38,172 bases of DNA. It comes from an uncultured bacterium (GTDB lineage: Bacteria > CSSED10-310 > CAZUFC01). Position numbers and translations under genes: made by a program. Shown here in pieces: positions 1,528 through 38,172 of the stretch (positions are counted from its first letter, which is position 1; each line of letters begins with the position of its first letter). The notes beneath the pieces are model-generated. The model saw only the letters and a program-made list of their open reading frames with translations, had not been told where the DNA came from and made no database searches. The DNA lies in the NCBI GenBank assembly GCA_964619725.1, contig CAZUFC010000052.1:16301-54472 (forward strand), in the 5' to 3' direction.

Positions 1528-1883
1528 TTTTCATAATCCAGAACTCCCCTATTCACGCCCTTCACACTGGACGGTCGAATTTAGAGAATTCAATCACCGG
1601 AGACGCCGGTGAAGTTTACGTTATTACAATGTTCACGATCGACATTTGCCCGGCGATTTTCCACAAACTCTATTCACCATTCAAATTTTTATATTGGACA
1701 GGCGCTGCCTTTTCCTCTGGTCATTGACTGATATTTCACGTTCTGCTAATGTGAAAAAAGGAGTAAAAATTAATGAAGCGCTTCCGTCGAAAATTATTGC
1801 GATTTAACGCCATATCGAAAAATGTTCTGGAAAATTCAAGCAGGAATATTATGGGTAGAAATTAATTGAGGAAGGATTCAGAA

Positions 1884-3638
1884 ATGACGATGCCGAAACT
1901 GTTCCATTTACTGGAGAACGGGGAATATGACGAGATACTGAGGTTAATGAGAGAGGGTGAGACTCCTGACGTAAGGCACGGAGACGAGAGTTTGCTGATG
2001 AGAGCAGTGATCGTCGGCGAAGTGAATTTTGTAAAAGAGCTGATAGAGCAGGGAGCTGATGCCGGATATACATCGTTGACCGTTTCGCCTTTAATTTCCG
2101 TCATATGTTCTTCTCAGCCGGAAAAGGTTGAGCTTGTAAAACTTTTGGTACAAAGCGGTGCGGCGATTAATCATCAGGACCATGAAGGAAGAAGCGCGCT
2201 TCATCATGCCGCAATGCACAGAGAACCGGATATATGCCGGATATTGATTGAAGCCTCCGCCTCGATCGACGATCCTGATTTTGAGGGGCTTACTCCCCTG
2301 ATGCATGCGCTGGCCGGGGGAATGTGGGACACTGCTTCATTGTTGCTTGACAAGGGAGCTTCACCTCATCCGGCGGATGAGAATTCTCCTGCGCCGCTTT
2401 ATTACGCCGCCTCACCTTATGAGGATGATTCGTCCGGCGTTGCGCTCCTGTTAAAGCGCGGCGCATCGCCGAACGGAAACAAAATGAACAGACCCTTGAA
2501 CGCAGCGGCTCATAGAGGACATAAAAAAATTGCAGCTTATCTTCTTGAGAAGGAGGCGAATACAGATTTAGCGGATTATGAGGGAATTACGGCTTTGCAG
2601 GCTTCGCTTATGAAAGGGGAGTCCGGCGTCGCCTCACTTCTTTTAGACCACGGCGCTTCGGCCGGAATTTCAAACGCGAAAGGAGAAACAGCGCTTCATT
2701 TAGCCGTAAAGTCCCGAAAGATAACATCAGAAGTTATTGAAATGTTGCTCAAAAAGGACCAGGACCCTTTCGTCACGGACAGCAGCGGCAAATCGGCCTA
2801 TGAACTGGCTGTAACCTCAGGGCGTCCTGAATTAGTAGTCATTTTCGACCGTTACGCCCAATCACCAAAAAAGTCAAACGACAAATCAGCCGCCAGACTC
2901 ATCAAGCTTTGCAGATCAGGAACTTACCAGGAATGTGCTGACGCGCTTCAAAATGACGTATATTCACAGGAAACGCTGACCCAGGCCTTTTACAAGGCAA
3001 AAGACCGCTCGTCTCGGGATATATGCCGCTTACTGCTGGACAACGGACTGTCTCCTGACGGCACGCCGGATAATCCTCTCATCTTTCCGGCAGTTACACG
3101 TTTACCCCCTGACTTTGAACTGGCGGGGATTATTCTGGTGAAAAATCCTGATTTTAATATTTTCGATGAAAACGGAGAATCTCCTCTGGGCTACCTCTGC
3201 GGCGGAGCGGAAACGCAAAAGGAGGTTTTCGACAGACCCTTCATTTACGACTCCGAAGACGAAAAAAGAGTGCATAACCTGATTAAATCGATCGTCAGGA
3301 AAGGAGCAGACGTTAATTTAAAAAATATGCTCGGAACGACTCCTTTTATGCATGCCGTTTACCGAAGGCCCCTGAGAACCGTTGAATTCCTGGTCGATCA
3401 CGGCGCCAATATTTTTACGGTCAATAAATATGGAGATACGCCTCTTCATTCTGCCTCCGGCCGCTATGCAGAAGGAAGGCATAATGTGGTTCAAATCCTG
3501 CTGAAGAGAGGCGCTGATCCCTTGCAAAAAAATAATCAGGGAGAAACGTCGATCGACAGGTCCGAAAAACGGGGATTCGAAGATACCGCTGAATTATTGA
3601 AGCAATTCGCACGAATCAACAGAAGACACGGTCCTTAA
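1884..3638 (+). CDS. Ankyrin repeat protein (two blocks of repeats, cytoplasmic)
   Basis: Many G-x-(T/S)-(P/A)-L-(H/M)-x-A...LL-x-x-GA repeats, e.g. GRSALHHAA, GLTPLMHAL, GETALHLAV, GDTPLHSAS. ATG 1884 follows GAGGAAGG; the ORF is open from 1866. Confidence 0.92.
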   Translation: MTMPKLFHLLENGEYDEILRLMREGETPDVRHGDESLLMRAVIVGEVNFVKELIEQGADAGYTSLTVSPLISVICSSQPEKVELVKLLVQSGAAINHQDHEGRSALHHAAMHREPDICRILIEASASIDDPDFEGLTPLMHALAGGMWDTASLLLDKGASPHPADENSPAPLYYAASPYEDDSSGVALLLKRGASPNGNKMNRPLNAAAHRGHKKIAAYLLEKEANTDLADYEGITALQASLMKGESGVASLLLDHGASAGISNAKGETALHLAVKSRKITSEVIEMLLKKDQDPFVTDSSGKSAYELAVTSGRPELVVIFDRYAQSPKKSNDKSAARLIKLCRSGTYQECADALQNDVYSQETLTQAFYKAKDRSSRDICRLLLDNGLSPDGTPDNPLIFPAVTRLPPDFELAGIILVKNPDFNIFDENGESPLGYLCGGAETQKEVFDRPFIYDSEDEKRVHNLIKSIVRKGADVNLKNMLGTTPFMHAVYRRPLRTVEFLVDHGANIFTVNKYGDTPLHSASGRYAEGRHNVVQILLKRGADPLQKNNQGETSIDRSEKRGFEDTAELLKQFARINRRHGP

Positions 3639-4738: not shown

Positions 4739-6127
4739 TCAGTCTGATGACCAGCCGAATGATACAGAGTCCCAGGCGCCCAGAATTTGGGAAAGGTTTT
4801 TTTCCAGCAGAGCGCTGTAGAAGAGTATGCCTGAGCCGGCGCTGGGTTCGTCGGGCCACTGGAATCGAAGTATTTCCATTTGGTATGAATCGATGCCCAG
4901 GAAGACGGGTTCGTAGCTGAAATCCTGTGTCCAGTCGGGATGCCAGAAATAGATGCCGTAGGCGTCTAACAGGACTACGAAGGGTTGATCGGCGTATATT
5001 GCAGGACCGGGATTGGAAAGTGTGGCGGAAAGCAGGAAAAGGTCGCCGGGCTGAAAGCTGTTTTCCGACAGATCGAGTTTGACGCCGAGCGGGTTTGGAG
5101 CGGGGGTAGCGGAATTTTCCGGCGTAGGCGTATAAGTGTATTCCGGCGTATGGGTAGGAGCTGTATCGGGTTCATAATGAAAACCCATATCCACAACGCC
5201 TGTATCGACGCCTCCGTCGGTCCTCGTCGACAGATCATCCAGGCAGATCGTGACGTCGCCTGCCGTAAAGCAGATTCCCGCAGCGTTTCCGCTGCCTGCA
5301 TCCGCACAGGGGCTGTCCTCGTCCTGTCCTGATGCCGTCTGACTCAGATAGTAGTCGCCGAAGGCGCCTTCGACGAACCTGGGATTGCCGTCTATATTGC
5401 CGGCGCCGGCATAACCGCCCTGGATATCCGAGTAGGTTATCTGCGGGTCCGAATCTTCCAGTTTCAGGTTTTGGGGCGTATTTTCCCAAACGATGACGTC
5501 CGTTAGGACCGGCGATGACAGATAAAAAGATATGCCTCCGCCGTTGCCGCTATTCGCTGAATTATCGGCTATCGTGCAGGATTGTATCGTGGGAGAGCAT
5601 TCCGAGCAATATATCCCCCCGCCGTCCATCGCAAAATTATTCGTTATCTGACAATTGGTCATCACTGAGGAAGATTTATGAAAATAAGCGCCGCCGCCTG
5701 AATACACCGCTGAATTGTTGTGTATAATGCAATTGGAAATTGTCGGCGATGATTCGAAACAATTTATGGCGCCTCCGTTGAATTGCGCCGCTGCATTTAT
5801 GATCGTGAAACCGATGATCTCCGTATTTTCGTTTTCATTACTGTCGCAAATAAAACCTGTCGATTCGCCTTCACAGTCGATTATGCAGGCTCCGGGCCCA
5901 TTGTCGGAAATCAGCAATATCTCTTTACCCCCGAAACTTACCGCACGGTTTCCCGTTCCCGTATATGTTCCGTCCTCAACAAGTACGGTATCGCCGTTTT
6001 CGGCTATTTCCACAGCAGCCTGTATAGTAACTTCATCGGTCGGCACTCGAATGATCGCTGCATTCAACCAACCGGCCGTCAAGAAAAATAAGGCTGCTGC
6101 GATTCCAAAGTATCTTAATATGTTCAT
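4739..6127 (-). CDS. Secreted right-handed parallel beta-helix (Pmp/pectin-lyase-like) protein with P/T linker and conserved C-terminal domain
   Basis: Signal peptide, TIQAAVEIAENGDTVLVEDGTY, repeated N-x-A-x-x-GG(A/G)I-x-C...SPTI-x-x-C motifs, and a TPEYTYTPTP linker. The terminal ~115 aa are homologous to the end of the 31568..34774 protein. Confidence 0.85.
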   Translation of the reverse strand: MNILRYFGIAAALFFLTAGWLNAAIIRVPTDEVTIQAAVEIAENGDTVLVEDGTYTGTGNRAVSFGGKEILLISDNGPGACIIDCEGESTGFICDSNENENTEIIGFTIINAAAQFNGGAINCFESSPTISNCIIHNNSAVYSGGGAYFHKSSSVMTNCQITNNFAMDGGGIYCSECSPTIQSCTIADNSANSGNGGGISFYLSSPVLTDVIVWENTPQNLKLEDSDPQITYSDIQGGYAGAGNIDGNPRFVEGAFGDYYLSQTASGQDEDSPCADAGSGNAAGICFTAGDVTICLDDLSTRTDGGVDTGVVDMGFHYEPDTAPTHTPEYTYTPTPENSATPAPNPLGVKLDLSENSFQPGDLFLLSATLSNPGPAIYADQPFVVLLDAYGIYFWHPDWTQDFSYEPVFLGIDSYQMEILRFQWPDEPSAGSGILFYSALLEKNLSQILGAWDSVSFGWSSD

Positions 6128-6236
6128 ATTCCGTGCCCCCTTTTTGTCGCTGAAAAATTTCACCGTACATTATTACCCTTTATGCGATGTAATGTAAAGC
6201 CGCTGCTGTTTTTGGACAAAAACCAGGTTATTGTTA

Positions 6237-7721
6237 TCAGCGTTTAATCAGCGCAGCAAAAGCTTTTTCAGCCTGAAGTTCGCGGGCGAGATGAAGAAGG
6301 TCCAATCTTCGCAGAATATCTATAGTTATGGGGCGTTTATTGTCCCAGAATATCTGGGATTCATAAAAGCGGCGCGCAGCCTTCGAATTGAGCAGCGAAG
6401 CCAGGAATCGGGCATCTTTTTGCCGTTCGCAGGAAATGAAACAGCAGGTATCATCCATCATAGTCGGTTTTTTATCATAAGGACCGACGATTTTGAAATG
6501 GAGTTTTTTATACAAACCGGATATTGCTATTTTCCAGGGTTTGAAAGAGTACTCCCCTACTCCAAAAATCGAGAAGCGGGATCGATTTCTGTAGATCGAG
6601 CTTTTGCGATTATCCAGCAGTTCTGCATATCTCATCAGGTATTCCCAGGTTCGCGGAACTTTGTCTTTCAATTGAGCAGTCGATTCTCCGGTCCTTTTTT
6701 GAGTCACGATCATCCACCGGGTCGGGGCAGGAGCCTTTACTGCAGCTCCGGACAGGTCTGAACTTTTAAGCATAGGGAAAAGGCAGTCCGGTTCCAGTTC
6801 GACCATATCGCCGAAACCGTTGAAATAACGCTCGCCGTCACGCCTTAACTCCATAACCCGGCAGCAGTCATGCTTTATGCCTGATCGCCATTTATACCGT
6901 TCCTGCCCCTGGAGATGCTTCCATTTTTCGTATTCCTCCGCATCGGATATGAGTTTTCCGTCGCGAAATCCGAACGTTTGCAAAGGCTTCTCAGAGGCAT
7001 CGAGGTTATTGTAGATGCGACACTCAGGACGGGGCGGTTTTTCCGATGTTGAGACTGTCAACAGGCAGGCATCGGCATTAACGTTGAAATGTCTTTTCGC
7101 ATCTATCAGATAAATGTCAGCCTGTTCGAAGGCGTATCCATTCGTCCACACATGCCGTAGGACCTTCCTGGCTACAGGCGTTTTGCACAGCATGGCTAAA
7201 ACGGCTTTGCGAGATGATACCTGTTCCAGCATCCGGATAATCATCCATTCGGAAATATCAAAATTACTTTTACCCGTGAGCGCATCCAAACCCTCAAACT
7301 TCTGTTTATTACATTTAAAGGGAAGGTTTTTCGCTCCTAATTTACCTAATTCAGCGCTGGTCGCCCAAGGCGGATTACCTAATATCAATAAAGAATCGGG
7401 CGCTTCTTTTAACTCGGCCTTCCAATCGGTCACAAAAAAATCCCGGTGAATGACTCGCACCTTTTCCCCCAGGATATGCCGCTTAAGGCTATTGGCCAGA
7501 GCCGCGGTGTATTCGCCGTTGATATCGTAACCATAAGCCTTTTCAATCGACGGAAATGCTTCTAAGGCCGCAAAAAGAAAATTACCATGACCGCATGAAG
7601 GCTCCACGACCGACCGGGGAGAAATATCCTGATCCGACAGCATACGGCATACCTCATGGCAAAGCTCAACCGGCGTCTGAAAATCGCCGAATTCCTTTTT
7701 CTTCCGTGATTTTTGCCTCAT
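6237..7721 (-). CDS. Orphan amino (probably N6-adenine) DNA methyltransferase, gamma-type motif order
   Basis: FGDFQTP (motif X), VEPSCGHGNF (motif I), ILGNPPW (motif IV), then a C-terminal target-recognition-like region. No adjacent endonuclease. Confidence 0.88.
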   Translation of the reverse strand: MRQKSRKKKEFGDFQTPVELCHEVCRMLSDQDISPRSVVEPSCGHGNFLFAALEAFPSIEKAYGYDINGEYTAALANSLKRHILGEKVRVIHRDFFVTDWKAELKEAPDSLLILGNPPWATSAELGKLGAKNLPFKCNKQKFEGLDALTGKSNFDISEWMIIRMLEQVSSRKAVLAMLCKTPVARKVLRHVWTNGYAFEQADIYLIDAKRHFNVNADACLLTVSTSEKPPRPECRIYNNLDASEKPLQTFGFRDGKLISDAEEYEKWKHLQGQERYKWRSGIKHDCCRVMELRRDGERYFNGFGDMVELEPDCLFPMLKSSDLSGAAVKAPAPTRWMIVTQKRTGESTAQLKDKVPRTWEYLMRYAELLDNRKSSIYRNRSRFSIFGVGEYSFKPWKIAISGLYKKLHFKIVGPYDKKPTMMDDTCCFISCERQKDARFLASLLNSKAARRFYESQIFWDNKRPITIDILRRLDLLHLARELQAEKAFAALIKR

Positions 7722-7913
7722 TTCTCCATATCGGTCCGTCGGACGAACAAAGATTCCTCTTCAGTAGTATCATATACCGATCATAAAGATCATTAATTTT
7801 CTGCTGTATCATCCGGAGAAAATTTTCCGACCAGGCGTTTTTCTAAAAACTCGGTCATCCGACGGAATATTTTGCAGGACGGCATTGTTTCATAAACCCT
7901 CGTTAAATCTCAT

Positions 7914-7942
7914 TTGACTTAACGTTCGATTTTGCCCATACT
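7914..7942 (+). promoter_or_regulatory. Putative sigma70 promoter of the Hsp70-kinase gene
   Basis: TTGACT-17 bp-CATACT about 63 bp upstream of ATG 8006. Confidence 0.45.
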
Positions 7943-8005
7943 TGAATGGATCGGGGGAATGCGTACGCTCGCTGAAAACAGTGAAACAGAACGTCGCATT
8001 TGATT

Positions 8006-10051
8006 ATGAAGCCTATAATAGGATTAGACATCGGTACAAGCAAAATCAGTGCAGCAGTATACCGGAACGGACGACTCAAGGTTATTCCAGATGAGGGAGG
8101 AGAAAACTCTTTTCCTATGGCGGCCGCCTTTGAGAAAAACGGACGGTTCGTCCTGGGCAACAAGGCTAAAAAGCAGCTTTTGATGAATGCTGAATACTCC
8201 ATCGTCAATTTTCTCCGTTTTTTAGCCCTGGACGAGAAAAAATTGAATGCCTGCGCCCATGAAAGGCTAATTAATTACAAACTTAGATACAATCCTGATG
8301 AAAATCGCGTGGAAGCTGCCGGAGCGGAAAAGAAATGGGTGGCTCTGACATATCTGATGGAGCGTTTGTTGGAAGAAGTTTATAAAAAAATTGAAAATGA
8401 CGTCGGCGAATATGAAGGAGAAGCAGTTTTATCCATTCCGGCAGGAATAGATTTCAACAAGAAGATATTGATCAAGGAGTGTGCGGAGAAGGCAGGGTTT
8501 AAAATAGTAGAGTATATTGAGAGTCCGTATGCTGCGGGGCTGGCGTATTGTCATAATAAACCCGAACCGCAGACGATCATCGTTTTTGATATGGGTGCGG
8601 GCAATACTAGCGTAGGCAGTTTTTCTCTGGAGAAGGGAAATGCGGTGGAGTTTATTGCAGCGGCCGGCAATGATGCATTGGGCGGTGATGACATTGACGA
8701 TTATGTCATAAAGTGGATGCTGGACAATATCAAGGAATACAAAGAAGAGCCGGGAGGATTGCCGGCTGATGCTTTACTGCGAATGCGGGAGGCAGCGGAA
8801 GAAACTAAGAGGGAGCTGTCATCAGTAAATAAAGCGGAGATAAATCTTCCTTATCTTTTTCCCGTAAAGAAGCATTTCTTGCATTTTCAGAAGTCATTAA
8901 CCAAACTTGATTTTGAATTACTGATAAAGAAACTGACAGCCGAGGCTTTGAAGACGATACAACGAGGATTAGGCGAAGGGCAGCTCATCAAGAAGGACAT
9001 TGAGACTGTGTTAATGACGGGCGGACAGAGTCGGATGCCGGTTCTGCAGGCGAGCATCGAGAATTTTTTCAAGAAGCAGCCTTATACGGGCGGAACCGCG
9101 AAAGAAATGTCAGCCATGGGAGCGGCGTTATTGGGTTTTAATATAGCATCGGGAGGGCAGGCGTTGAAGGTCAAACGCCGTTCGACGATTCTTCTGGACC
9201 GATTGCCTCCGGGCTTTATGATCAGTGATCGTTACCAGGTACTGTTTAAAATAGGCGGCGGCGGTTTCGGATATGTTTATAAGGTACGAGAGAAAAAAAC
9301 AGGAAAGGTTTTTGCTTTAAAGATACTCAAACCTGAGTATGAACGAGATGAAACGACACGCGAGAGGTTCCTGGAATCCGGGCGACGTACGCTGGGTTTT
9401 TCGCATCCGAACATCGTAACCACTGTAGATGTGATCTCTGAAGGCGCAATTGCGGGAATTCTCATGAAATATATTGAAGGAATCAGTCTCGAAAAATTCG
9501 TTGAAAAAGGGCATTTTGATGAGATGCCGCTGTATCGCCGTCTGGATATGCTCATAAGTGTTTTACGAGCGTTAATAGTTCTGAGAAACAGAAACATTTT
9601 TCACGGCGATCTGAAGCCTGAAAACGTGTTCGTCAATCATGAGCATGTGCCCATGCTGTTTGATTTCGAGCTTTTCCGCTTGAAATCGGAAAACGACGGT
9701 CAACGGATACAGGTTACCGGAACGCCTCGATATATGGCTCCCGAACACATTTCAGGAGAGAATGTTTTTGGCGAATGGAGCGAGATATATTCTCTGGGGT
9801 TAATCATGTACCGATTGTTTGCCGGTCGGTTTCCGAAAAAAGCGGACAACCCGAAAAAGGATTATCTGATCTTCGACTTCGGCTTTTCAAAAGCGGAAGA
9901 CCCGCAGAACGTTAATCCGTCCATTCCTGACGAGCTGGCAGGCATCATAAAAAAGAGCATACGTCGCAAACGCGACCAGCGTTTTCAGACTTTTGAGGAA
10001 CTGATGGAAGCGCTGGAGGCTCTGCAGAAGGATACAGCCATACAGGATTGA
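8006..10051 (+). CDS. Hsp70/DnaK-like nucleotide-binding domain fused to a Hanks-type Ser/Thr protein kinase
   Basis: N-terminal IIGLDIGTS, VFDMGAG, LGGDDID, AEETKRELS and TGGQSRMP (Hsp70 NBD). C-terminal IGGGGFGYVY, FALK, HGDLKPEN, DFE and GTPRYMAPE (kinase). There is no Hsp70 substrate-binding domain. Confidence 0.9.
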   Translation: MKPIIGLDIGTSKISAAVYRNGRLKVIPDEGGENSFPMAAAFEKNGRFVLGNKAKKQLLMNAEYSIVNFLRFLALDEKKLNACAHERLINYKLRYNPDENRVEAAGAEKKWVALTYLMERLLEEVYKKIENDVGEYEGEAVLSIPAGIDFNKKILIKECAEKAGFKIVEYIESPYAAGLAYCHNKPEPQTIIVFDMGAGNTSVGSFSLEKGNAVEFIAAAGNDALGGDDIDDYVIKWMLDNIKEYKEEPGGLPADALLRMREAAEETKRELSSVNKAEINLPYLFPVKKHFLHFQKSLTKLDFELLIKKLTAEALKTIQRGLGEGQLIKKDIETVLMTGGQSRMPVLQASIENFFKKQPYTGGTAKEMSAMGAALLGFNIASGGQALKVKRRSTILLDRLPPGFMISDRYQVLFKIGGGGFGYVYKVREKKTGKVFALKILKPEYERDETTRERFLESGRRTLGFSHPNIVTTVDVISEGAIAGILMKYIEGISLEKFVEKGHFDEMPLYRRLDMLISVLRALIVLRNRNIFHGDLKPENVFVNHEHVPMLFDFELFRLKSENDGQRIQVTGTPRYMAPEHISGENVFGEWSEIYSLGLIMYRLFAGRFPKKADNPKKDYLIFDFGFSKAEDPQNVNPSIPDELAGIIKKSIRRKRDQRFQTFEELMEALEALQKDTAIQD

Positions 10052-10145
10052 TTAACAAAGGCTTAAATACAATGAACCCTGCAATATTCTCTTCATCGTT
10101 AACTCGTTTTGTCTTTTGAGGATTAATGCAGCCAGGTTATAAACC

Positions 10146-11906
10146 ATGATAGATTTACGAACAATATTAATCGCTTTTGACGGTTCGGAAGACTCATTAA
10201 ACGCTTTAAGATACGCTGAACAGATGAAGCGGATATTCGAAGCGCGACTGATACTGTTGCACGTTTTGCCGAGGTCTGCGGCGAAATCTGGAAGTGGCGG
10301 CGCTTCGAAGGCAGGATGCTGGAAAACGCTTGTAGATGAGCTGCCTTCTGAAATAGGGCGTCTGTTAGAAGAATACGATCCGCTGCCGGATACGTCGCTA
10401 TATTTGCAATACGGCGCAGCGACTCAAAAAATCATCGAAACCGCCGAGGAAGTCTCTGCCGATATGATCGTGATGGGGTCTGTAGGAAAAGGTTTAAAAG
10501 AGGCTATTGTGGGGGGGACGGCGCGTCGAGTGATCGAAGGAGTGGCCTGTTGGGTATTATGCGTACCTAAGGCTAATATGACGACCTGGAAACCTGTTCT
10601 TCCGGATCAACTGGTTCTGGCTACGACGTTTCCCAGGGCCTTTCAGAAACTTTTCTTGAGGTTGATCAACGTCAGCCGGCGGTTAAAAGCAGGTTTGAAT
10701 CTTTTGTATGTTCGAGAAGAAGGAGATTCCGACAAACCTGAAGTCATCCATCCCGGATATGTGCCTGTGGATATAACCGGCATGACGAGAAGCGCTGTCC
10801 GCTACAGGATAAGGAAATATGTAGAGCATCTCGTGCCATGCGGAAACAGAAAAATGCCCCGTATATTCATAAAGAAAGGTTCGGAAACTAAAGAGATTCT
10901 TAATTGCCTGCATACTCAAAATCGTCTGATCGTACTGGGCAGCAGGCACATTGCCGGCTGGAGAATATTGTTGCCCGGAGGAGTAATAAAAAACGTTCTA
11001 AGGAATACTGATGTGCCTGTTTTGATCGTGAGGGGCGCTGATAAACTGGAAAAAGTGGAAAATAAATTCAAATCAGTTTCTGAAAAAATATCGGACCTTT
11101 CATTACAGAAAACAGGAGCGCTTCAAAATGAAGAGTCCCCGCTCTCTGAACCTCTTGGCCGTAAGGAACCGGCGGACAAGTTCTTTATGGGCTACTACGG
11201 CGAAAAAGGTTTACGCGAAGCCTTGACTCGATACGGTATTTTTCAGCTCATTGAAAAAAAAGGATATCACGATTTCGTCATGCGATTGAACTGCAGCGAC
11301 CCTTATCGCCAGAGGCTTAGAGTCTACAGCGACGGAAAATATGACGAAGAGAAGCTTCTGTTAGACCTGGTTTTGAAGCCCGGCGTTTTGACTGATCGAG
11401 ATGATTTGCCTGACTCGCTCCCGCAAAAAGTAATTCAATACGTTCAAATCGAATGGCTTTTGACGCGTGACCATGCGCAGCTCTGCAGGAGCCCGCAAAA
11501 CCTCCTGCCGGGCCAGAACGTGGGCGGACTGGGTATCGGAAAAGAAATATTCGTGCTTCTCATGATTATGGCCGAAAGGCTGGAAAAGGATGCGCTCATA
11601 GCCGTACCCGATCATTTCCACAATGCGATACTTTTCGGTTCCCGATTCAAGTTTCTGCACCCGAAATATGAAGCCTGGGTTCAGGCCCTTAAAAGAGATA
11701 CGGCAGGCTATACCCTTCATGAACTGGCATGGCTGCTTGAAAACGCAAAAGTGATCGATGACGTGACGAAAAAAGTCTTTCAATGGCAGGGGAAGACTCA
11801 GATTCTTCCCATCTCTCAACCACTGAAAAAATATTACAATTCTTTTGAATACTTCACGGAACTCAATGAATATTTGAAAAATTACTGCTTTAAAATCGTC
11901 GATTGA
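10146..11906 (+). CDS. Tandem universal stress protein (USP-USP) fused to an uncharacterised ~240-aa C-terminal domain
   Basis: USP1: ILIAFDGSEDSLNAL...ADMIVMGSVG...GGTARRVI...VLCVP. USP2: LIVLGSR...NVLRNTDVPVLIV. C-terminal domain with IEWL, LLPGQ..GGLG and PDHFHNA. Confidence 0.85.
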   Translation: MIDLRTILIAFDGSEDSLNALRYAEQMKRIFEARLILLHVLPRSAAKSGSGGASKAGCWKTLVDELPSEIGRLLEEYDPLPDTSLYLQYGAATQKIIETAEEVSADMIVMGSVGKGLKEAIVGGTARRVIEGVACWVLCVPKANMTTWKPVLPDQLVLATTFPRAFQKLFLRLINVSRRLKAGLNLLYVREEGDSDKPEVIHPGYVPVDITGMTRSAVRYRIRKYVEHLVPCGNRKMPRIFIKKGSETKEILNCLHTQNRLIVLGSRHIAGWRILLPGGVIKNVLRNTDVPVLIVRGADKLEKVENKFKSVSEKISDLSLQKTGALQNEESPLSEPLGRKEPADKFFMGYYGEKGLREALTRYGIFQLIEKKGYHDFVMRLNCSDPYRQRLRVYSDGKYDEEKLLLDLVLKPGVLTDRDDLPDSLPQKVIQYVQIEWLLTRDHAQLCRSPQNLLPGQNVGGLGIGKEIFVLLMIMAERLEKDALIAVPDHFHNAILFGSRFKFLHPKYEAWVQALKRDTAGYTLHELAWLLENAKVIDDVTKKVFQWQGKTQILPISQPLKKYYNSFEYFTELNEYLKNYCFKIVD

Positions 11907-12789: not shown

Positions 12790-13719
12790 ATGAAGCAAAA
12801 GGGCATATTGATATTGGCGCTTGCATTGGGCGTCATTGCAGTCATACTTGTACAGGTATACATTCGAGACATTGAGAAGAAGCACGAGGTTGAGGATACG
12901 GTATCGGTTCTGGTTGCGGCGAAGAACATACCGGCCGGAACAGCGGTGACAGGGACGCAGATAACGACGGAGAAGGTGCCTCGCCAGTTTTTAAATCCCA
13001 ATGCGGTATTGCCGAAGGAGCTGGAATTGATATTGAATCAGACGACGTCTATTGATCTTCAGAAGGGTCAACAGATATTATGGACGGATTTCGTTTCTGA
13101 AAAGGAGACGGGACTGGCGACGGTGATAAAGGAAGGCGAACGGGCGTTGACTTTGGACGTGAACGATCGTACGGGAGTATCCGGATTATTGAAGCCGAAC
13201 GATCACGTGGACATAATCGGAACTTTCCAGGTTCCGAAAGAGGTAAAGATAGACGCCGGCGATCTGAGAAAATTTCAAGGCGACTTTTCTTATCAATTTG
13301 AGCAGGTGACGGTAACTTTGCTTCAAAACGTGACGGTGCTGGCGGTGGGAAAGTATATAGGTACGGAAGATTTCGGTCCGGGAGCGATGTTTCCTGCCGC
13401 ATCGGGAATGAGAGGTTCATTAGGCATGGACGCGGCAGCTCAAACCGCGGCCAAACGTCTGCAGGACAAAATGTCGTATCGAACAGTCACTGTGCTGGTT
13501 ACGCCGTTAGAGGCCGAATTGCTCGTGCATGCCATGCTTACGGGAGAAATTACTCTTGCTCTTCGTAATCCTGAGGACCTGATGACCGAACTCAAACTGC
13601 CCAACATCAAGTTCACTGACGTAGTGAAGTCCGAATTTGTGGAAGAGATTCAGCAGAAGAGGACTGAGCGAACCATTGAGATTTACAAGGGTCCGGGTCA
13701 AAAGAAGAGAAGAAGATAA
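12790..13719 (+). CDS. cpaB: Flp/Tad pilus assembly protein CpaB (RcpC)
   Basis: N-terminal TM helix, SAF domain (VLVAAKNIPAGT), GERALTLDV...GVSGLLKPNDHVDII, LLQNVTVLAV, VTVLVTPLEAELL and ITLALRNPED. Confidence 0.93.
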   Translation: MKQKGILILALALGVIAVILVQVYIRDIEKKHEVEDTVSVLVAAKNIPAGTAVTGTQITTEKVPRQFLNPNAVLPKELELILNQTTSIDLQKGQQILWTDFVSEKETGLATVIKEGERALTLDVNDRTGVSGLLKPNDHVDIIGTFQVPKEVKIDAGDLRKFQGDFSYQFEQVTVTLLQNVTVLAVGKYIGTEDFGPGAMFPAASGMRGSLGMDAAAQTAAKRLQDKMSYRTVTVLVTPLEAELLVHAMLTGEITLALRNPEDLMTELKLPNIKFTDVVKSEFVEEIQQKRTERTIEIYKGPGQKKRRR

Positions 13720-13795
13720 GTCATTATTTCATGAAGAAGCTTACAGGCGAATGAACAGAGGATTAATAAACTATTTTCGTCGGGAGGTTAAAGAC

Positions 13796-15103
13796 ATGGT
13801 TGGAAAGGGGACTTCTGTGAGAAGAACTGCATTAACAGCGACGGCCATAGCCGTCATGGGAATCGTTTTCTGCTGTTTTACGGCATCGGCGCAGGAAATG
13901 ATCACTCTGATAGTCGGCGAACAGCAGACTCTTGATGCCCGCGACACAGTAAGAGTAGCCGTAGGCGACCCCAACATAGCGGACGTGAAAGTGATAGCCG
14001 GGGGCCGGGAATTGCTTATAACGGGAATCAGTTCCGGGACCACCACCCTAACTATGTGGAACAATCGCAACGAGAAGACCACGTTGCAGATAAAAGTCAT
14101 CGCCAGGGACCCCAAGGAAGTGGCCCGTGAAGTTAGAGAACTGCTGGGCGACGTGGAAGGCATCTCGATCGTGGTAGTGGGGGAAAAGGTCGTTCTGGAC
14201 GGAGAAGTCTTCAGACAGAAGGACTTGGACAGGGCTGACAAAGTCGTTCAGATGTATGAACCCCAGTTGGTTTCTCTGTTGGAATACAACAAGGCTTATC
14301 TTGAAATGAAAAGAATGATCCAGGTGGAATTCAAGTTTTATGAAATTGATAAGAACAAAGCCACCCGTTTCGGCATCAATATGTCCGACCTTCTGAATCC
14401 TCAATCTCCTCTGATCAGCGCTCAGTATTCCATCAATTCCCAGTCCAATGAAATGACCGACAATTTGAATTCCGACAACAACATGGATACCGAAACCGAC
14501 ACAACCAGTCTGAACGTAAGCGTAACCAATGACTTCAATCCTCTCAGGATCGACTCGGAAGACGATAAAATAAGGCTGATGGAGGAACATCAGGCTGTGA
14601 CCAGAAGCGGCGAAAAGGTTTATTTCGTAGCGGGCGGCGAAGTGCCTATCGCGGTAGAGGGTACGGCCGGCTCTGCAGGTTATGTGGAATGGAAACAATA
14701 CGGGACCATAATCAATGCACAACCTGAAATTGACCGGATCAACAATATAATCCTGACTATTTCAGTCGAATCCAGTCAGTTGGATTGGGCTAATGCGGTC
14801 AGCGGATATCCGGCCATTAAATTGAACCGCAGCGACACTGTGGTCAATATGAAATCAGGACAAACCCTGTTGATGGGCGGAGTCTTCAGTACGGGTTCTT
14901 CAAGAAAATCAGACGGCATACCCGGTTTCAGCAAGATTCCTCTTCTCGGTTTCCTTTTCGGCGCCAAAGAATATACGAAAAACAGGCATGACGGCGTTCT
15001 GTTCATCACCCCCAGCATAATCAATCCCGTGGATCAACCCGGACAGAACCCCAGAATTCAGGCCGTCATCGACAGATTCGAAGAAAAGGACCTGATGCTC
15101 TGA
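13796..15103 (+). CDS. cpaC: Flp/Tad pilus secretin CpaC (RcpA)
   Basis: Signal peptide, RVAVGDPNIADV...GTTTLTMW N-domain, and secretin domain (FVAGGEVPI, GQTLLMGG, IPGFSKIPLLGFLFG, LFITPSII). ATG 13796 follows GGGAGG. Confidence 0.92.
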   Translation: MVGKGTSVRRTALTATAIAVMGIVFCCFTASAQEMITLIVGEQQTLDARDTVRVAVGDPNIADVKVIAGGRELLITGISSGTTTLTMWNNRNEKTTLQIKVIARDPKEVAREVRELLGDVEGISIVVVGEKVVLDGEVFRQKDLDRADKVVQMYEPQLVSLLEYNKAYLEMKRMIQVEFKFYEIDKNKATRFGINMSDLLNPQSPLISAQYSINSQSNEMTDNLNSDNNMDTETDTTSLNVSVTNDFNPLRIDSEDDKIRLMEEHQAVTRSGEKVYFVAGGEVPIAVEGTAGSAGYVEWKQYGTIINAQPEIDRINNIILTISVESSQLDWANAVSGYPAIKLNRSDTVVNMKSGQTLLMGGVFSTGSSRKSDGIPGFSKIPLLGFLFGAKEYTKNRHDGVLFITPSIINPVDQPGQNPRIQAVIDRFEEKDLML

Positions 15104-25952: not shown

Positions 25953-28900
25953 TCAATAGACTTCGAAGGAACGATCGAATTCAGGATAATGCACATCGTT
26001 ATAATACAGCTTAACGATACCCGGATCGCCGACAGAAGCGCCGCAATCGGCAATGGGTATAAGTTTCGTGACCACTTTTTCAGAGCTGGGCGTCAGGTTG
26101 AAAGGCACTTCGCGGCAAACTTCTCCGTTGACGCTCCATACCACCAGAAGTCGATCTCCGTCATTCGGGGCGCTGAGGAAAACCGTGGATTTGAATCCGC
26201 CTGTATCGTTTTCAGGTTCCAGTTGGTGGTCTGTGATATGAGATTCTTCGATACTGATGTTTATTTCATCGTAAGCTGACGTCCCGTTGGCATCATGCAC
26301 GGTAATGCGTGCCGTATAGACGCCCATTGAATTATAGGTATGACAGGGGTTTTTTTGCGTTGAATCGGTATCGATTCCGTCGGCCGTATTGAAGTCCCAG
26401 GAATAATCGTACGGGGGGACTCCTCCGGTAACCTCGGCATCGAAGCATATTTCTGAGCCGGGAAGTCCGTGGGTGGGATCGGCTGAAGCGACCACCACGA
26501 GTTCGACGACTCCGACGGTAACGGTCAGGCAGCATACTTTAGATGCGCCCGTGGAATCGTCGACAGTCACGCAAGCCTGGAAACTGCCTCCATCGGTGTA
26601 TGTATGCGAAGGATTAGGCTCAGAGCTTCCTGCGCTGCCGTCTCCGAAGTTCCAGGAGTAGGAATAAGGAGGCGTTCCGCAACTTACGGAAGCGGAAAAA
26701 TCAACTTCAAGCGGCGCATCTCCGCTACGAGGTTCCCCATAGCAATATACCTCCATTCCCCCTGTGCAGGGAGTCACATTAACCGTAACGGAACTTGATG
26801 CTGCGACGCCCAGGCAGTCAGTGACGATAACCTGAACCTGGTACGAACCGTATTGAGCGTATGAATGATTGACGGACGTTCCTTGAGCCGAAGTTCCGTC
26901 TCCGAAATTCCAGACGGTGTTGAAAGGCGATACTCCACCTTGAACGGTTCGGGAAAAATGAACCGACTGACCGACGTCCACGCTGGGCGGCGATGCCTGA
27001 CAGGATACCGTCAGGGGATGTTGAATAACATTCAGATAGGGCCAGATTTCACTGACGTTGCCGTCCTGGTCGGCAGCTCTCAGTTCAAGAACGTAGTCAT
27101 CAGGAGGAACCATGCCCGCTTCAAGCGGTACTTCCATCACATAAGTCGAATCGCTGATCTTAGGAAGATAGGTACCGGTGGGTTCCCGGTTGAAAAACAG
27201 CTCTACATTTTGCACATCTGATGCTCCCTGCGGGTCGCCGACGATGGCCCAGATTTTCAGCGTTCCCTCTCCTTCATCGTCCAGTTCGGTGTCCCATTGT
27301 CCTGCAGCAAGAATATAGGGACTGTTTTGCGTTACATCTTCAGGTCCTGCGCCTATTTCGCCGGCGCCCTCATATTGACTGAATTCTTCTGTTTCTTTTC
27401 CAATATGGAATGCGGGCCATAAGTCTCCCACATTTCCCCAGGAATCCTCTGCTCCGATCTGAATCAGATAGGCATCTCCGGGAAAACAGGATGAGTCGGG
27501 TATGGAAAAGTTCAATTCATATACGCCTGAGCCCGAATCGTTCATTTTCAATCCTGTAGGCTCGCCGTTATAGTATAATTCCATGCCGGTAACTCCGGGG
27601 TCTTCGGTATATCCGGCGAGAGTGATATCAATGGCATCATCCGAGAAGGCCCGTGTGGTGAGATAACCTCCCAGCCAGATGGAAGGGCCTTTATTGTCGA
27701 TGTGGAAGGTAACGGATTCCAGCGGTTGAGAATAGCGTTCGCATTGGTCTTGGGCCCTTACGTCCAGTTGATGAACGCCTTCGTCCAGGTCTTCCAGGGT
27801 CAGGGACCATTGTACTGTTCCTTCAGCGGTAAGCCAATCGCCGCCGTCCAGCCGACCTTCCACTTTTATCAGTTCAGGTCCGTTGGAAGCGGCTACGCCG
27901 GCTGCGACGAGTTCGGTACCGCTATAAACGGCATCGGGTACGGGTGAGGTTATATCGACATAAGGCAGTTGCGTATTGCTGAAGAAATTTACTGAAGCGG
28001 TATTGCCCTGATGGTCGAAAGCATCGAATGCTCTGACTTTCAACGTTTTAAGTCCTATGGTCGGTTCAGTCCAGTCAAAGGTCCATTCTTCTGTTCCCTG
28101 GGCGGGCATCCAGGTCTCGCCGTTGTCCAGGGAAACCTCGACCAGCTCGACGCCGATCCCTTCATCTGCGGAAACGCCTTCAAACGTATGCGATTCTCCG
28201 TCCAGACATCCTTCGTCTTCAGGAACAGTAATTTCTGTCGCCGGTCCTTCGTCGTCAATGGTTACTGTAATGGAAAAACCTTCATCCTCCAGATTCTCCG
28301 CATAATCTTCCGCTCTCGACGTAAAGGTGAATGTCCCGGCTGAAGCGCCCGGCCATTCATAACTCCAGGTACCCTCATCCTCATCTGTTTCTGCAACATA
28401 TGTGTCCTGATTTATGTCGACGAATACTCTGTAAACCCCACATCCGTACTGACCGTCTTCGAAAGTTCCCTGAATCGTGAGCGCTCCCGGCGGTATATAA
28501 GACCCGTCTTCAGGGAAAGTTATTTCAGACGAGGGAGCGCTCATGTCGAACAGCCAGTCGTCGACGGTTTTTTCAGCGATATTGCCCGACATGTCTTGCG
28601 CGGAAAAATATATACTGTAATAAGCGCCGTCTGCGAGAACGTCGTCCGTCGTCGTATCGCCGTCGTTGTTCAGGTCCAACCCGTTCAATGAATGAATGTT
28701 CATGCCCTGGTCTGCAGAGATCACTTCCGTAAGTTCATGGGGCGAATTGGGGTCCTCATTCCCTCCCGTTCTTTGCATTATCATAAGAGGATTATCGCAC
28801 GGTTCGCTTAAGATGTACATTAAATCGATGTACTGGCCTGAACATGAATCATTGGCGGGTTTCAACCACCTGATGCGGGGTAGAGACCTGACGCTGAAGG

Positions 28901-36397: not shown

Positions 36398-38172
<1,775 letters not shown>

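Follow-up and report, generated by a model that had tools for sequence, protein, structure and literature searches.

Hsp70 is among the best studied allosteric machines, and in nearly all cases its nucleotide-binding domain (NBD) is found at work as an ATPase with a coupled substrate-binding domain (SBD). Other uses of the domain are known. The Hsp70-superfamily proteins Hsp110/Sse1 and Ssz1 bind ATP and need not hydrolyze it, and HSPA13/STCH is an NBD-only protein. BiP controls the stress kinases IRE1 and PERK in trans, as a working chaperone, and in the archaeal Kae1-Bud32 fusions Kae1, from a different family of the fold, is joined to Bud32, a RIO-like mini-kinase. The accessible text of Krupa & Srinivasan (PMC1262709) lists the combination of a kinase and an HSP70 domain in Pirellula in 2005, as well as 'glycoproteases' fused to kinases. 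Here, we analyzed a 38,172-nucleotide stretch of DNA from an uncultured bacterium of the CSSED10-310 lineage (contig CAZUFC010000052.1, positions 16,301 to 54,472; hereafter the window). The window encodes P0001, in which an Hsp70-type NBD with substituted catalytic residues is followed, after a short tether, by an atypical Ser/Thr kinase. The same architecture recurs in a family of relatives, and the two halves have co-evolved.

The P0001 gene is one uninterrupted frame (ATG at 8006, stop at 10049..10051) with no internal stop and no ambiguous base. Its start reads MKPIIGLDIGT, and that of the relative P0270 reads MKPSLGIDIGT. The gene is laid out as follows:

8006..10051, + strand, whole gene of 681 aa (NBD, tether and kinase), an open frame with two Pfam domains and collinear relatives at 31-36% identity over residues 1-670
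8015..9160, + strand, Hsp70-type NBD, residues 4-385, complete and catalytically degenerate (Pfam HSP70; DnaK NBD chains)
9161..9232, + strand, inter-domain tether, residues 386-409, ALKVKRRSTILLDRLPPGFMISDR, which includes TILLD at 9185..9199
9233..10006, + strand, Hanks-type Ser/Thr kinase domain, residues 410-667 (Pfam Pkinase; solved PknB-type chains)

The original prediction had described a full Hsp70 NBD with a kinase in place of the SBD, and the Pfam search bore this out. HSP70 matched residues 4-400 over profile positions 1-390 of 599 (216.9 bits, E 5.5e-64), and Pkinase matched residues 410-667 (135.9 bits, E 2.2e-39). The SBD and lid part of the HSP70 profile had no Pfam match in P0001, and the kinase begins at residue 410. 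Against the NCBIfam models, P0001 scored 233 bits for DnaK (cut-offs 648-822) and 175 bits for PknB_PASTA_kin (cut-off 450). By these scores, both halves are clear superfamily members and neither is an orthologue of DnaK or of the PknB/PASTA proteins.

The census of the family comes from a HMMER scan that covered all 1.84 billion cluster representatives. Four relatives, P0121-P0124, were collinear with P0001 (E 3.6e-121 to 1.5e-105, 31-36% identity) and are referred to, with P0001, as short forms:

P0121, 677 aa, 36% identity to P0001, E 3.6e-121
P0122, 667 aa, collinear short form
P0123, 657 aa, collinear short form, the full form of which is P0270 (677 aa)
P0124, 697 aa, E 1.5e-105, labelled by NCBI as 'Hsp70 family protein [candidate division CSSED10-310 bacterium]'

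The same scan found three long forms (P0125, P0130 and P0133; 785-788 aa). In these, the HSP70 match covers profile positions 2 to 490-491, which is the NBD and the beta-sandwich without the lid, and the kinase follows about 30 residues later. The fusion noted in P0001 is thus conserved among relatives. The clusters hold one or two members each. In the counts below, the nine family rows stand for eight distinct proteins, as P0123 and P0270 were both counted, and the six short-form rows stand for five distinct short forms.

Other collections added little to this census. The scan of metagenome contigs gave a single member, on contig L098. Among the best 80 of 458 relatives in species-representative genomes no family member was seen, with four loci with long match spans (L030, L041, L047 and L063) left out of the inspection; the best of these relatives (3e-46) matched the NBD alone. 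No full-length match was found in 40 related genomes, the nearest of which are only of the same phylum, and at least 80% of P0001 was covered in none of 208 matching plasmid records and none of 39 matching phage records. A word-index search with P0001 alone returned just two other fusions, of another type; when repeated with the family profile, it recovered no known family member and was therefore worthless as a census. A search for shorter relatives found no split form of the fusion, only two generic kinases at 31%. The family is small, old and apparently undescribed, and belongs to uncultured bacteria.

To place the NBD substitutions, P0001 was aligned with HMMER to the DnaK chains 2v7y_A, 8w1m_A and 9dvi_B and with MAFFT to this genome's own two DnaKs and 35 other NBDs. 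The two methods agreed, and the motif coordinates in both domains were confirmed by translation. The alignments to solved DnaK NBD chains had E values of 2.5e-48 to 1e-40, and identity to the genome's own DnaKs was about 27%. By sequence, P0001 has a complete four-subdomain NBD like that of canonical Hsp70s (2v7y_A, 8w1m_A, 1dkg_D, 2kho_A), without the beta-sandwich SBD and lid. The motifs are the following:

8027..8044, + strand, phosphate-1 loop DIGTSK, with D8 and T11 kept and N13 replaced by Lys (alignment)
8213..8215, + strand, Leu70 in place of the catalytic and sensor residue Lys70 (HMMER and MAFFT alignment)
8510..8530, + strand, EYIESPY, with Glu169 for Arg167 (the J-domain contact) and E172, S173 and Y175 for N170, E171 and T173 (alignment)
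8588..8611, + strand, phosphate-2 loop DMGAGNTS, with D194 kept, GGG changed to GAG, T199 to N and D201 to S (alignment)
8798..8821, + strand, adenosine helix EETKRELS, with the equivalents of E267, K270 and S274 kept (alignment)
9020..9040, + strand, adenosine loop GGQSRMP, with the equivalents of G341, G342 and Q343 kept (alignment)

The meaning of these changes can be read from work on DnaK. In the available part of PMC12406271, adenine is held by S274 and Q343, ribose by E267 and K270, and the phosphates by backbone amides of the glycine loops. T11 and K70 provide the only side chains on the gamma-phosphate, T11 being its primary sensor, and allostery is disabled when they are replaced. 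The Mg2+-bound waters are held by D8, E171 and D194, the T199A mutant has much reduced ATPase activity, and D393 of the linker bonds N170 and T173 (PMC12406271). According to the accessible portion of PMC13012618, a salt bridge between R167 and D35, the aspartate of the J-domain HPD motif, is critical for stimulated hydrolysis.

At the six catalytic positions D8, K70, E171, D194, T199 and D201, P0001 reads D, L, S, D, N and S. The substitutions at K70 (L70, within FLRF), E171 (S173, NEPT to ESPY) and T199 (N200, GGGTFD to GAGNTS), which the original prediction had called by eye, were reproduced in both alignments. These also placed S202 at D201, E169 at R167, E172 at N170, Y175 at T173 and G-A-G at G196-G198, with D8, T11 and D194 (D195) retained. 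None of the nine family rows keeps all six catalytic residues, compared to 21 of 26 other Hsp70-kinase fusions. Across the nine rows, the replaced columns read:

K70: L, L, I, Y, L, Y, I, K, K
E171: S, S, T, K, S, K, S, D, D
T199: N, F, A, S, S, S, A, Y, F
D201: S, G, K, E, K, E, R, T, T

The loss of hydrolytic residues is therefore a trait of the whole family, in agreement with the original view that this NBD is impaired in hydrolysis. The R167 equivalent is Glu or Asp in all six short-form rows.

The residues that hold the nucleotide in DnaK have fared differently. The equivalents of E267, K270, S/T274, Q343, G196, G198 and D194 are kept in all six short-form rows, and T11 and D8 in all four of those that reach the N-terminus. 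P143 and R151 (as Lys or Arg) are kept as well. The GAG of the phosphate-2 loop is invariant across the five short forms, as are G339, Q341 and P345 of the adenosine loop. Over these five proteins, the four nucleotide motifs comprise 31 columns, 13 of them invariant, compared to 23 of 340 in the rest of the NBD; this is an odds ratio of about 10 (Fisher p 5e-7) from a test that counts related sequences as independent and uses motif windows that we picked ourselves. With the fold, the glycine loops and the adenine and ribose side chains kept and the hydrolytic residues lost, the P0001 NBD has most likely become a pseudo-ATPase with retained binding of ATP, ADP or a related adenine nucleotide.

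The kinase half combines preserved chemistry with a missing switch. Its best solved matches, over residues 403-673 at 110 to 94 bits, are PknB/Stk1/StkP-type kinases (4eqm_A, 9ymt_A, 9ruk_A and 1mru_A), with 9ymt_A and 4eqm_A at 110 bits followed by StkP and PknB. P0001 shares with these the lead-in (G..I..RY), the Gly loop (GGGGFG), the β3 Lys (K439), the catalytic loop (D535, K537, N540), the DFG Asp (D553) and the Glu of APE (E580). The original prediction had noted the Gly loop, the Lys, the catalytic Asp and APE, together with DFE for DFG, which lies at 553-555. P0001 differs from the PknB-type kinases in the αC Glu, which is Ser, in HGD for HRD, in DFE, and in having no membrane segment and no PASTA domain. 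The αC and HRD changes had not been part of the original prediction. The motifs concerned are:

9365..9379, + strand, RFLES, with Ser458 at the αC-glutamate position and Glu457 one residue before it (alignment to 4eqm_A and StkP)
9602..9625, + strand, catalytic loop HGDLKPEN, with the catalytic Asp, Lys and Asn kept and the HRD Arg changed to Gly (alignment)
9662..9670, + strand, DFE for DFG, with Glu in 7 of 9 family rows and Gly in P0122 and P0124
9716..9745, + strand, end of the activation segment, TGTPRYMAPE, with T571, G572, T573, P574, P579 and E580 invariant in the family

These changes are confined to the NBD-fused family clade. The αC Glu is absent from all nine family rows (S, S, A, T, T, S, S, S, S), compared to its presence in 27 of 29 other fusions and 199 of 208 other kinases, or 226 of the 237 kinases outside the family. 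The HRD Arg is likewise absent from all nine (six Gly, three Ala) and present in 28/29 and 198/208, and the DFG Gly, which is Glu in seven family rows, is Gly in 28/29 and 199/208. In contrast, the β3 Lys, the catalytic Asp, Lys and Asn, the DFG Asp and the APE Glu are kept in 9/9 rows, and TGTP is invariant, at a kinase-domain identity of 39-58% within the family. Coupling of the αC helix, the activation loop and the DFG motif normally depends on the αC Glu, the HRD Arg and the DFG Gly. The alignments therefore point to a kinase with the residues of phosphotransfer preserved and three coupling elements gone. Since HRD reads HGD, it is a non-RD kinase, still within the Hanks-type superfamily.

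Next, trees of the two halves were compared. The kinase tree (44 rows, IQ-TREE quick) left out P0270, a near-duplicate of P0123, and the fusions P0138, P0144, P0145, P0148, P0172, P0208 and P0247. The eight family rows grouped in a single clade with an SH-aLRT of 100, and its stem measured 1.62 changes per site. Within it, the short forms grouped with a support of 98 and the long forms with 80. Consistent with this, the P0001 kinase scored 196-261 bits against family kinases and at most 125 against every other kinase compared. In the NBD tree (45 rows), the short-form clade had a support of 96, and P0122 and P0124, which are also a pair in the kinase tree, paired at 98. By this congruence, the NBD and kinase halves co-evolved. 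The family lies on very long branches in the NBD tree (1.2-2.7, compared to a median of 0.57), and an outside protein, P0275 (an Archangium Hsp70-family protein), is drawn into it. P0275 has a different architecture and degenerate motifs of its own; it was rejected as a family member and its placement taken as long-branch attraction. We infer that a lid-less Hsp70 was fused once, in an ancestor, to a kinase, and that the short-form lineage later lost the beta-sandwich by deletion. The order of these events was read from the NBD-SBD order, which is universal in Hsp70s, as the tree was not rooted.

Fusion of Hsp70 to a kinase is a known architecture, and the P0001 family is a variant of it. Clusters of 55-89 proteins with both Pfam families occur in the Atlas in Planctomycetota, Actinomycetota and Methanobacteriota, and 37 other proteins compared here carry both domains in at least two other arrangements. 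Lid-less Hsp70-TPR-kinase proteins (P0002, P0003, P0134 and others; about 1160-1270 aa), for example, likewise join an Hsp70 NBD and a Hanks kinase within a single chain. The other fusions differ from the P0001 family in that 21 of 26 keep all six catalytic residues, most keep the VLLLDVTP linker and an SBD, their kinases have the αC Glu, the HRD Arg and the DFG Gly in place and fall outside the family clade (support 100), and their domain order or spacers are different. What appears to be new in the P0001 family is the NBD-only form, the family-wide pseudo-ATPase, a private kinase clade with a remodelled switch, and the long-form intermediate. No experimental or comparative study of this family or of any Hsp70-kinase fusion was found in the open-access full-text literature and preprints searched. 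The eukaryotic Hsp110/Sse1, Ssz1 and HSPA13/STCH also use an Hsp70 NBD in a job other than the hydrolysis-driven chaperone cycle, but they act within the chaperone network, have no fused kinase and are likened to P0001 by description only. BiP with IRE1 or PERK and Kae1-Bud32 offer an analogy only, that of an actin/Hsp70-fold domain governing or partnering a kinase, with homology no closer than superfamily.

As a separate observation, the five fusions outside the family that have lost at least one catalytic NBD residue are P0155 (T199 to S, D201 to N), P0239 (E171 to A, GAGG), P0197, P0175 and P0247. Erosion of the ATPase may recur once an Hsp70 is fused to a kinase.

The reading we favor, to which we give about an even chance, is that the NBD of P0001 binds nucleotide without hydrolyzing it and regulates the atypical kinase. 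P0001 would be a soluble signalling protein with an N-terminal half descended from a DnaK-type Hsp70. Its NBD, acting as a regulatory domain, would bind an adenine nucleotide without splitting ATP, and NBD occupancy or conformation would be relayed through the tether and direct domain contact to set the active geometry of the kinase, which would then phosphorylate cytoplasmic targets. The kinase is predicted to be competent but NBD-dependent because its own switch (the αC Glu, the HRD Arg and mostly the DFG Gly) is missing. Canonical Hsp70 allostery is unlikely to be intact because K70, N170 and T173 are changed, and input from a J-protein is unlikely because R167 is charge-reversed. The family, then, may use a retired chaperone ATPase to control a kinase. 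Of the interpretation that accompanied the original prediction, the part that made the NBD an impaired nucleotide binder is supported, while the parts that invoked co-chaperones, linker allostery and conflict are not.

In this family, a domain has been retained long after the loss of hydrolysis, J-protein coupling and the substrate domain, and it is tied to a kinase without its own switch. If the NBD gates the kinase, this would be a natural re-use of the nucleotide-dependent conformational change of Hsp70 for signalling. It would also offer a small system in which to ask how much of the Hsp70 relay still functions once K70 is gone, and a single-chain bacterial counterpart to the stress kinases under Hsp70 control. 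Without such gating, the family would still be a clean case of paired pseudo-enzyme evolution.

The tether bears on how such gating could work. It has 24 residues, from the last helix of the NBD to the kinase, of which the final ~10 are the usual lead-in of PknB-type kinases. From the GAA motif to the P-G motif there are 27-29 residues in 5/5 short forms, while identity in the tether segment among them is only about 26%. We infer a fixed geometry between NBD and kinase because the length is conserved. The net charge of the tether in the five short forms is +4, +5, +5, +1 and +5. An unlikely, more specific version of the NBD-gated reading builds on this charge. Here, the acidic residues at positions 167 and 170 would meet the basic tether (+4 to +5 in 4/5 members) in a charge-swapped contact, which would stand in for the canonical bonding of N170 and T173 by the linker Asp; this complementarity is an idea only. 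The kinase, unable to reach its active geometry in the normal way, would have its lost switch replaced by the retired ATPase, which would bind ATP or ADP without turnover, and the protein would be a single-chain sensor of adenylate energy charge or a related nucleotide that reports by phosphorylation. The long forms would be an ancestral version that also reads unfolded-protein load.

Several results weigh against control by a nucleotide-bound NBD. Without K70, the allosteric relay of Hsp70 is partly disabled, as far as the available part of PMC12406271 describes it, so the nucleotide state may not be transmitted. The NBD is fast-evolving, with a mean pairwise identity of 28% within the family, compared to 44% for the kinase and 48% among canonical-looking NBDs. 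The long forms P0130 and P0133 also lack D194 and parts of the adenosine motifs, which suggests that nucleotide binding may not extend to the whole family; a purely structural role fits these two better. A kinase without its αC glutamate could be weak or inactive. The family is tiny, with eight distinct proteins, and the related sequences and self-chosen windows behind the enrichment of invariant columns count here as well. Finally, the two neighbourhoods compared, those in the window and on L098, have no gene in common and give no clue to input or target.

A rather unlikely alternative is that the NBD is a docking or scaffold module. It would recruit the kinase to a partner, such as the cell's DnaK through Hsp110-like NBD-NBD pairing, or would self-associate, with control by localisation or oligomerisation. 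Pairing of Hsp110-type proteins with Hsp70 requires ATP to be bound but not hydrolyzed, and dimerisation activates kinases of the PknB type. The loss of catalytic residues with the fold kept, the decay of D194 and the adenosine motifs in P0130 and P0133, and the presence of two canonical DnaK systems in the genome would all fit a scaffold. A pure scaffold, however, needs no nucleotide motifs, and no other part of the short-form NBD is as well conserved as the motifs for adenine, ribose and phosphate. Also, no conserved partner gene lies nearby in the two neighbourhoods, and R167, the J-domain contact, is lost.

Another explanation, distinctly unlikely, is that P0001 is a double pseudoenzyme that neither hydrolyzes ATP nor phosphorylates and serves as an adaptor only. 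It draws on the NBD without its catalytic set and on the kinase without the αC Glu and HRD Arg (9/9 each) or the DFG Gly (7/9). Pseudokinases usually lose at least one of the residues of catalysis itself, though, and non-RD kinases are commonly active. In this family the β3 Lys, the catalytic Asp, Lys and Asn, the DFG Asp, the APE Glu and TGTP have stayed invariant at 39-58% identity.

The full mechanism of the original prediction, in which ATP/ADP exchange and DnaJ/GrpE act on the NBD and a VLLLD-type linker relays the state canonically to the kinase, is very doubtful. It rested in part on TILLD being a remnant of the interdomain linker. The position given for TILLD was correct, and three observations are in keeping with canonical relay: the Pfam HSP70 match in P0001 reaches through TILLD; P143, R151 (Lys/Arg), T11, D8 and D194 are kept; and a hydrophobic residue followed by Asp precedes the kinase in four of the five short forms. 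The homology of TILLD to VLLLD is ambiguous, however, and descent from the Hsp70 linker is weakly confirmed at best. The Pfam match spans TILLD in P0001 only and stops at profile positions 372-381 in the relatives, the equivalents of which are poorly conserved (LRRFD, VKKIG, VMQLD, LSRLD). By manual count, the distance to the GAA motif is 7 residues longer for TILLD than for VLLLD in DnaK, and multiple alignments placed TILLD inconsistently. The long forms have a clear linker elsewhere (IKIFEI, VRVFEV) and a distinct D-x-L-P-x-G lead-in ahead of the kinase. In addition, K70 is lost in all short forms, and the partners of the linker Asp, N170 and T173, are now acidic and hydrophobic. Sensing of co-chaperones is not supported, with Glu or Asp at R167 in 6/6 short-form rows, given that the R167-D35 bridge is described as critical in the accessible portion of PMC13012618.

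The original prediction also raised a conflict role, which would make P0001 an anti-phage component, for example a kinase effector beside a methyltransferase. This is highly improbable. The kinase half matches PADLOC mad6 (189 bits) and PD-T4-6, and a methyltransferase gene does lie upstream:

6237..7721, - strand, type II DNA methyltransferase (PADLOC PDLC03310, 532 bits, full length)

The PADLOC models match only the generic kinase fold, at residues 403-679, and the NCBIfam scores are far below cut-off for MAD6 (122.6 bits, cut-off 460) and for PglW of BREX (54, cut-off 990). Neither the window nor L098 contains recognisable partner genes of MADS, PD-T4-6 or BREX, and no recognisable restriction enzyme adjoins the methyltransferase. 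On L098 the relative lies between an aminotransferase gene and an FHIPEP export gene on the other strand. The plasmid and phage counts above (0/208 and 0/39) and the absence of tRNA genes from the window also speak against this role, and kinases are ordinary in this genome. A defence role was rejected on the sub-cut-off models, the lack of plasmid or phage carriage and the lack of a tRNA gene. An assembly chimera or decaying pseudogene, which a draft of 344 contigs with 6.5% contamination might bring to mind, is effectively refuted, as the frame is free of stops, the NBD and kinase trees agree, and P0121-P0124, in four other clusters from different sources, and the relative on L098 share the collinear architecture.

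The genome as a whole also bears on what P0001 is. This 9.17-Mb draft is 90.9% complete and encodes two canonical DnaKs with DnaJ and GrpE beside them. Because two canonical DnaK systems are present, P0001 is not the housekeeping chaperone; it is one of many multidomain kinases. At least 34 Pkinase matches exceeded the Pfam cut-off, and many of these Hanks-type kinase genes lie in frames of 1000-1950 aa, marking a kinase-rich organism. The genome contains two further atypical Hsp70-like proteins:

L004, 964..2613, - strand, 549-aa Hsp70-like protein with a partial HSP70 match (profile positions 113-402) and an acidic C-terminal region, adjoining a coiled-coil protein
L005, 295..3150, + strand, 952-aa protein, Cys-rich at the N-terminus, in which a weak HSP70 NBD spans residues 403-805, with a long middle region

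Downstream of P0001, 94 bases away on the same strand, lies a gene for a tandem-Usp protein:

10146..11906, + strand, tandem-Usp protein (Pfam Usp 3.6e-29, two stretches)

No terminator-like site was found between the two genes. The Usp gene is a possible co-transcript, or its product a possible substrate, of P0001. It is not a conserved partner, as no Usp gene was found in the L098 neighbourhood. The protein has 586 aa, and by eye its first Usp domain has a G-2x-G-9x-G-T motif of the ATP type (GSVGKGLKEAIVGGT). Pfam assigns no family to the C-terminal ~287 residues, for which there is no solved relative either; the closest clusters in the Atlas consist of hypothetical proteins from Myxococcota and Aminicenantota. 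An Rfam search of 7650..10200 found nothing, repeats around the P0001 gene were just short, chance-like pairs, and a promoter and terminator scan gave sites no more numerous than in shuffles. The other genes noted in the window were:

1866..3638, + strand, 590-aa ankyrin-repeat protein
4739..6163, - strand, gene after the methyltransferase, encoding a parallel beta-helix-like protein with an N-terminal hydrophobic segment
12006..12596, isochorismatase-family hydrolase, downstream of the Usp gene
12790..15103, + strand, right after the hydrolase, Flp/Tad pilus genes for RcpC/CpaB (SAF and RcpC domains) and a secretin with T2SS-T3SS_pil_N
25953..31445, - strand, 1830-aa FG-GAP/PKD/Big-domain protein
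36398..38161, - strand, at the window edge, collagen-triple-helix-repeat protein ending in a Peptidase_S74 (endosialidase chaperone) domain

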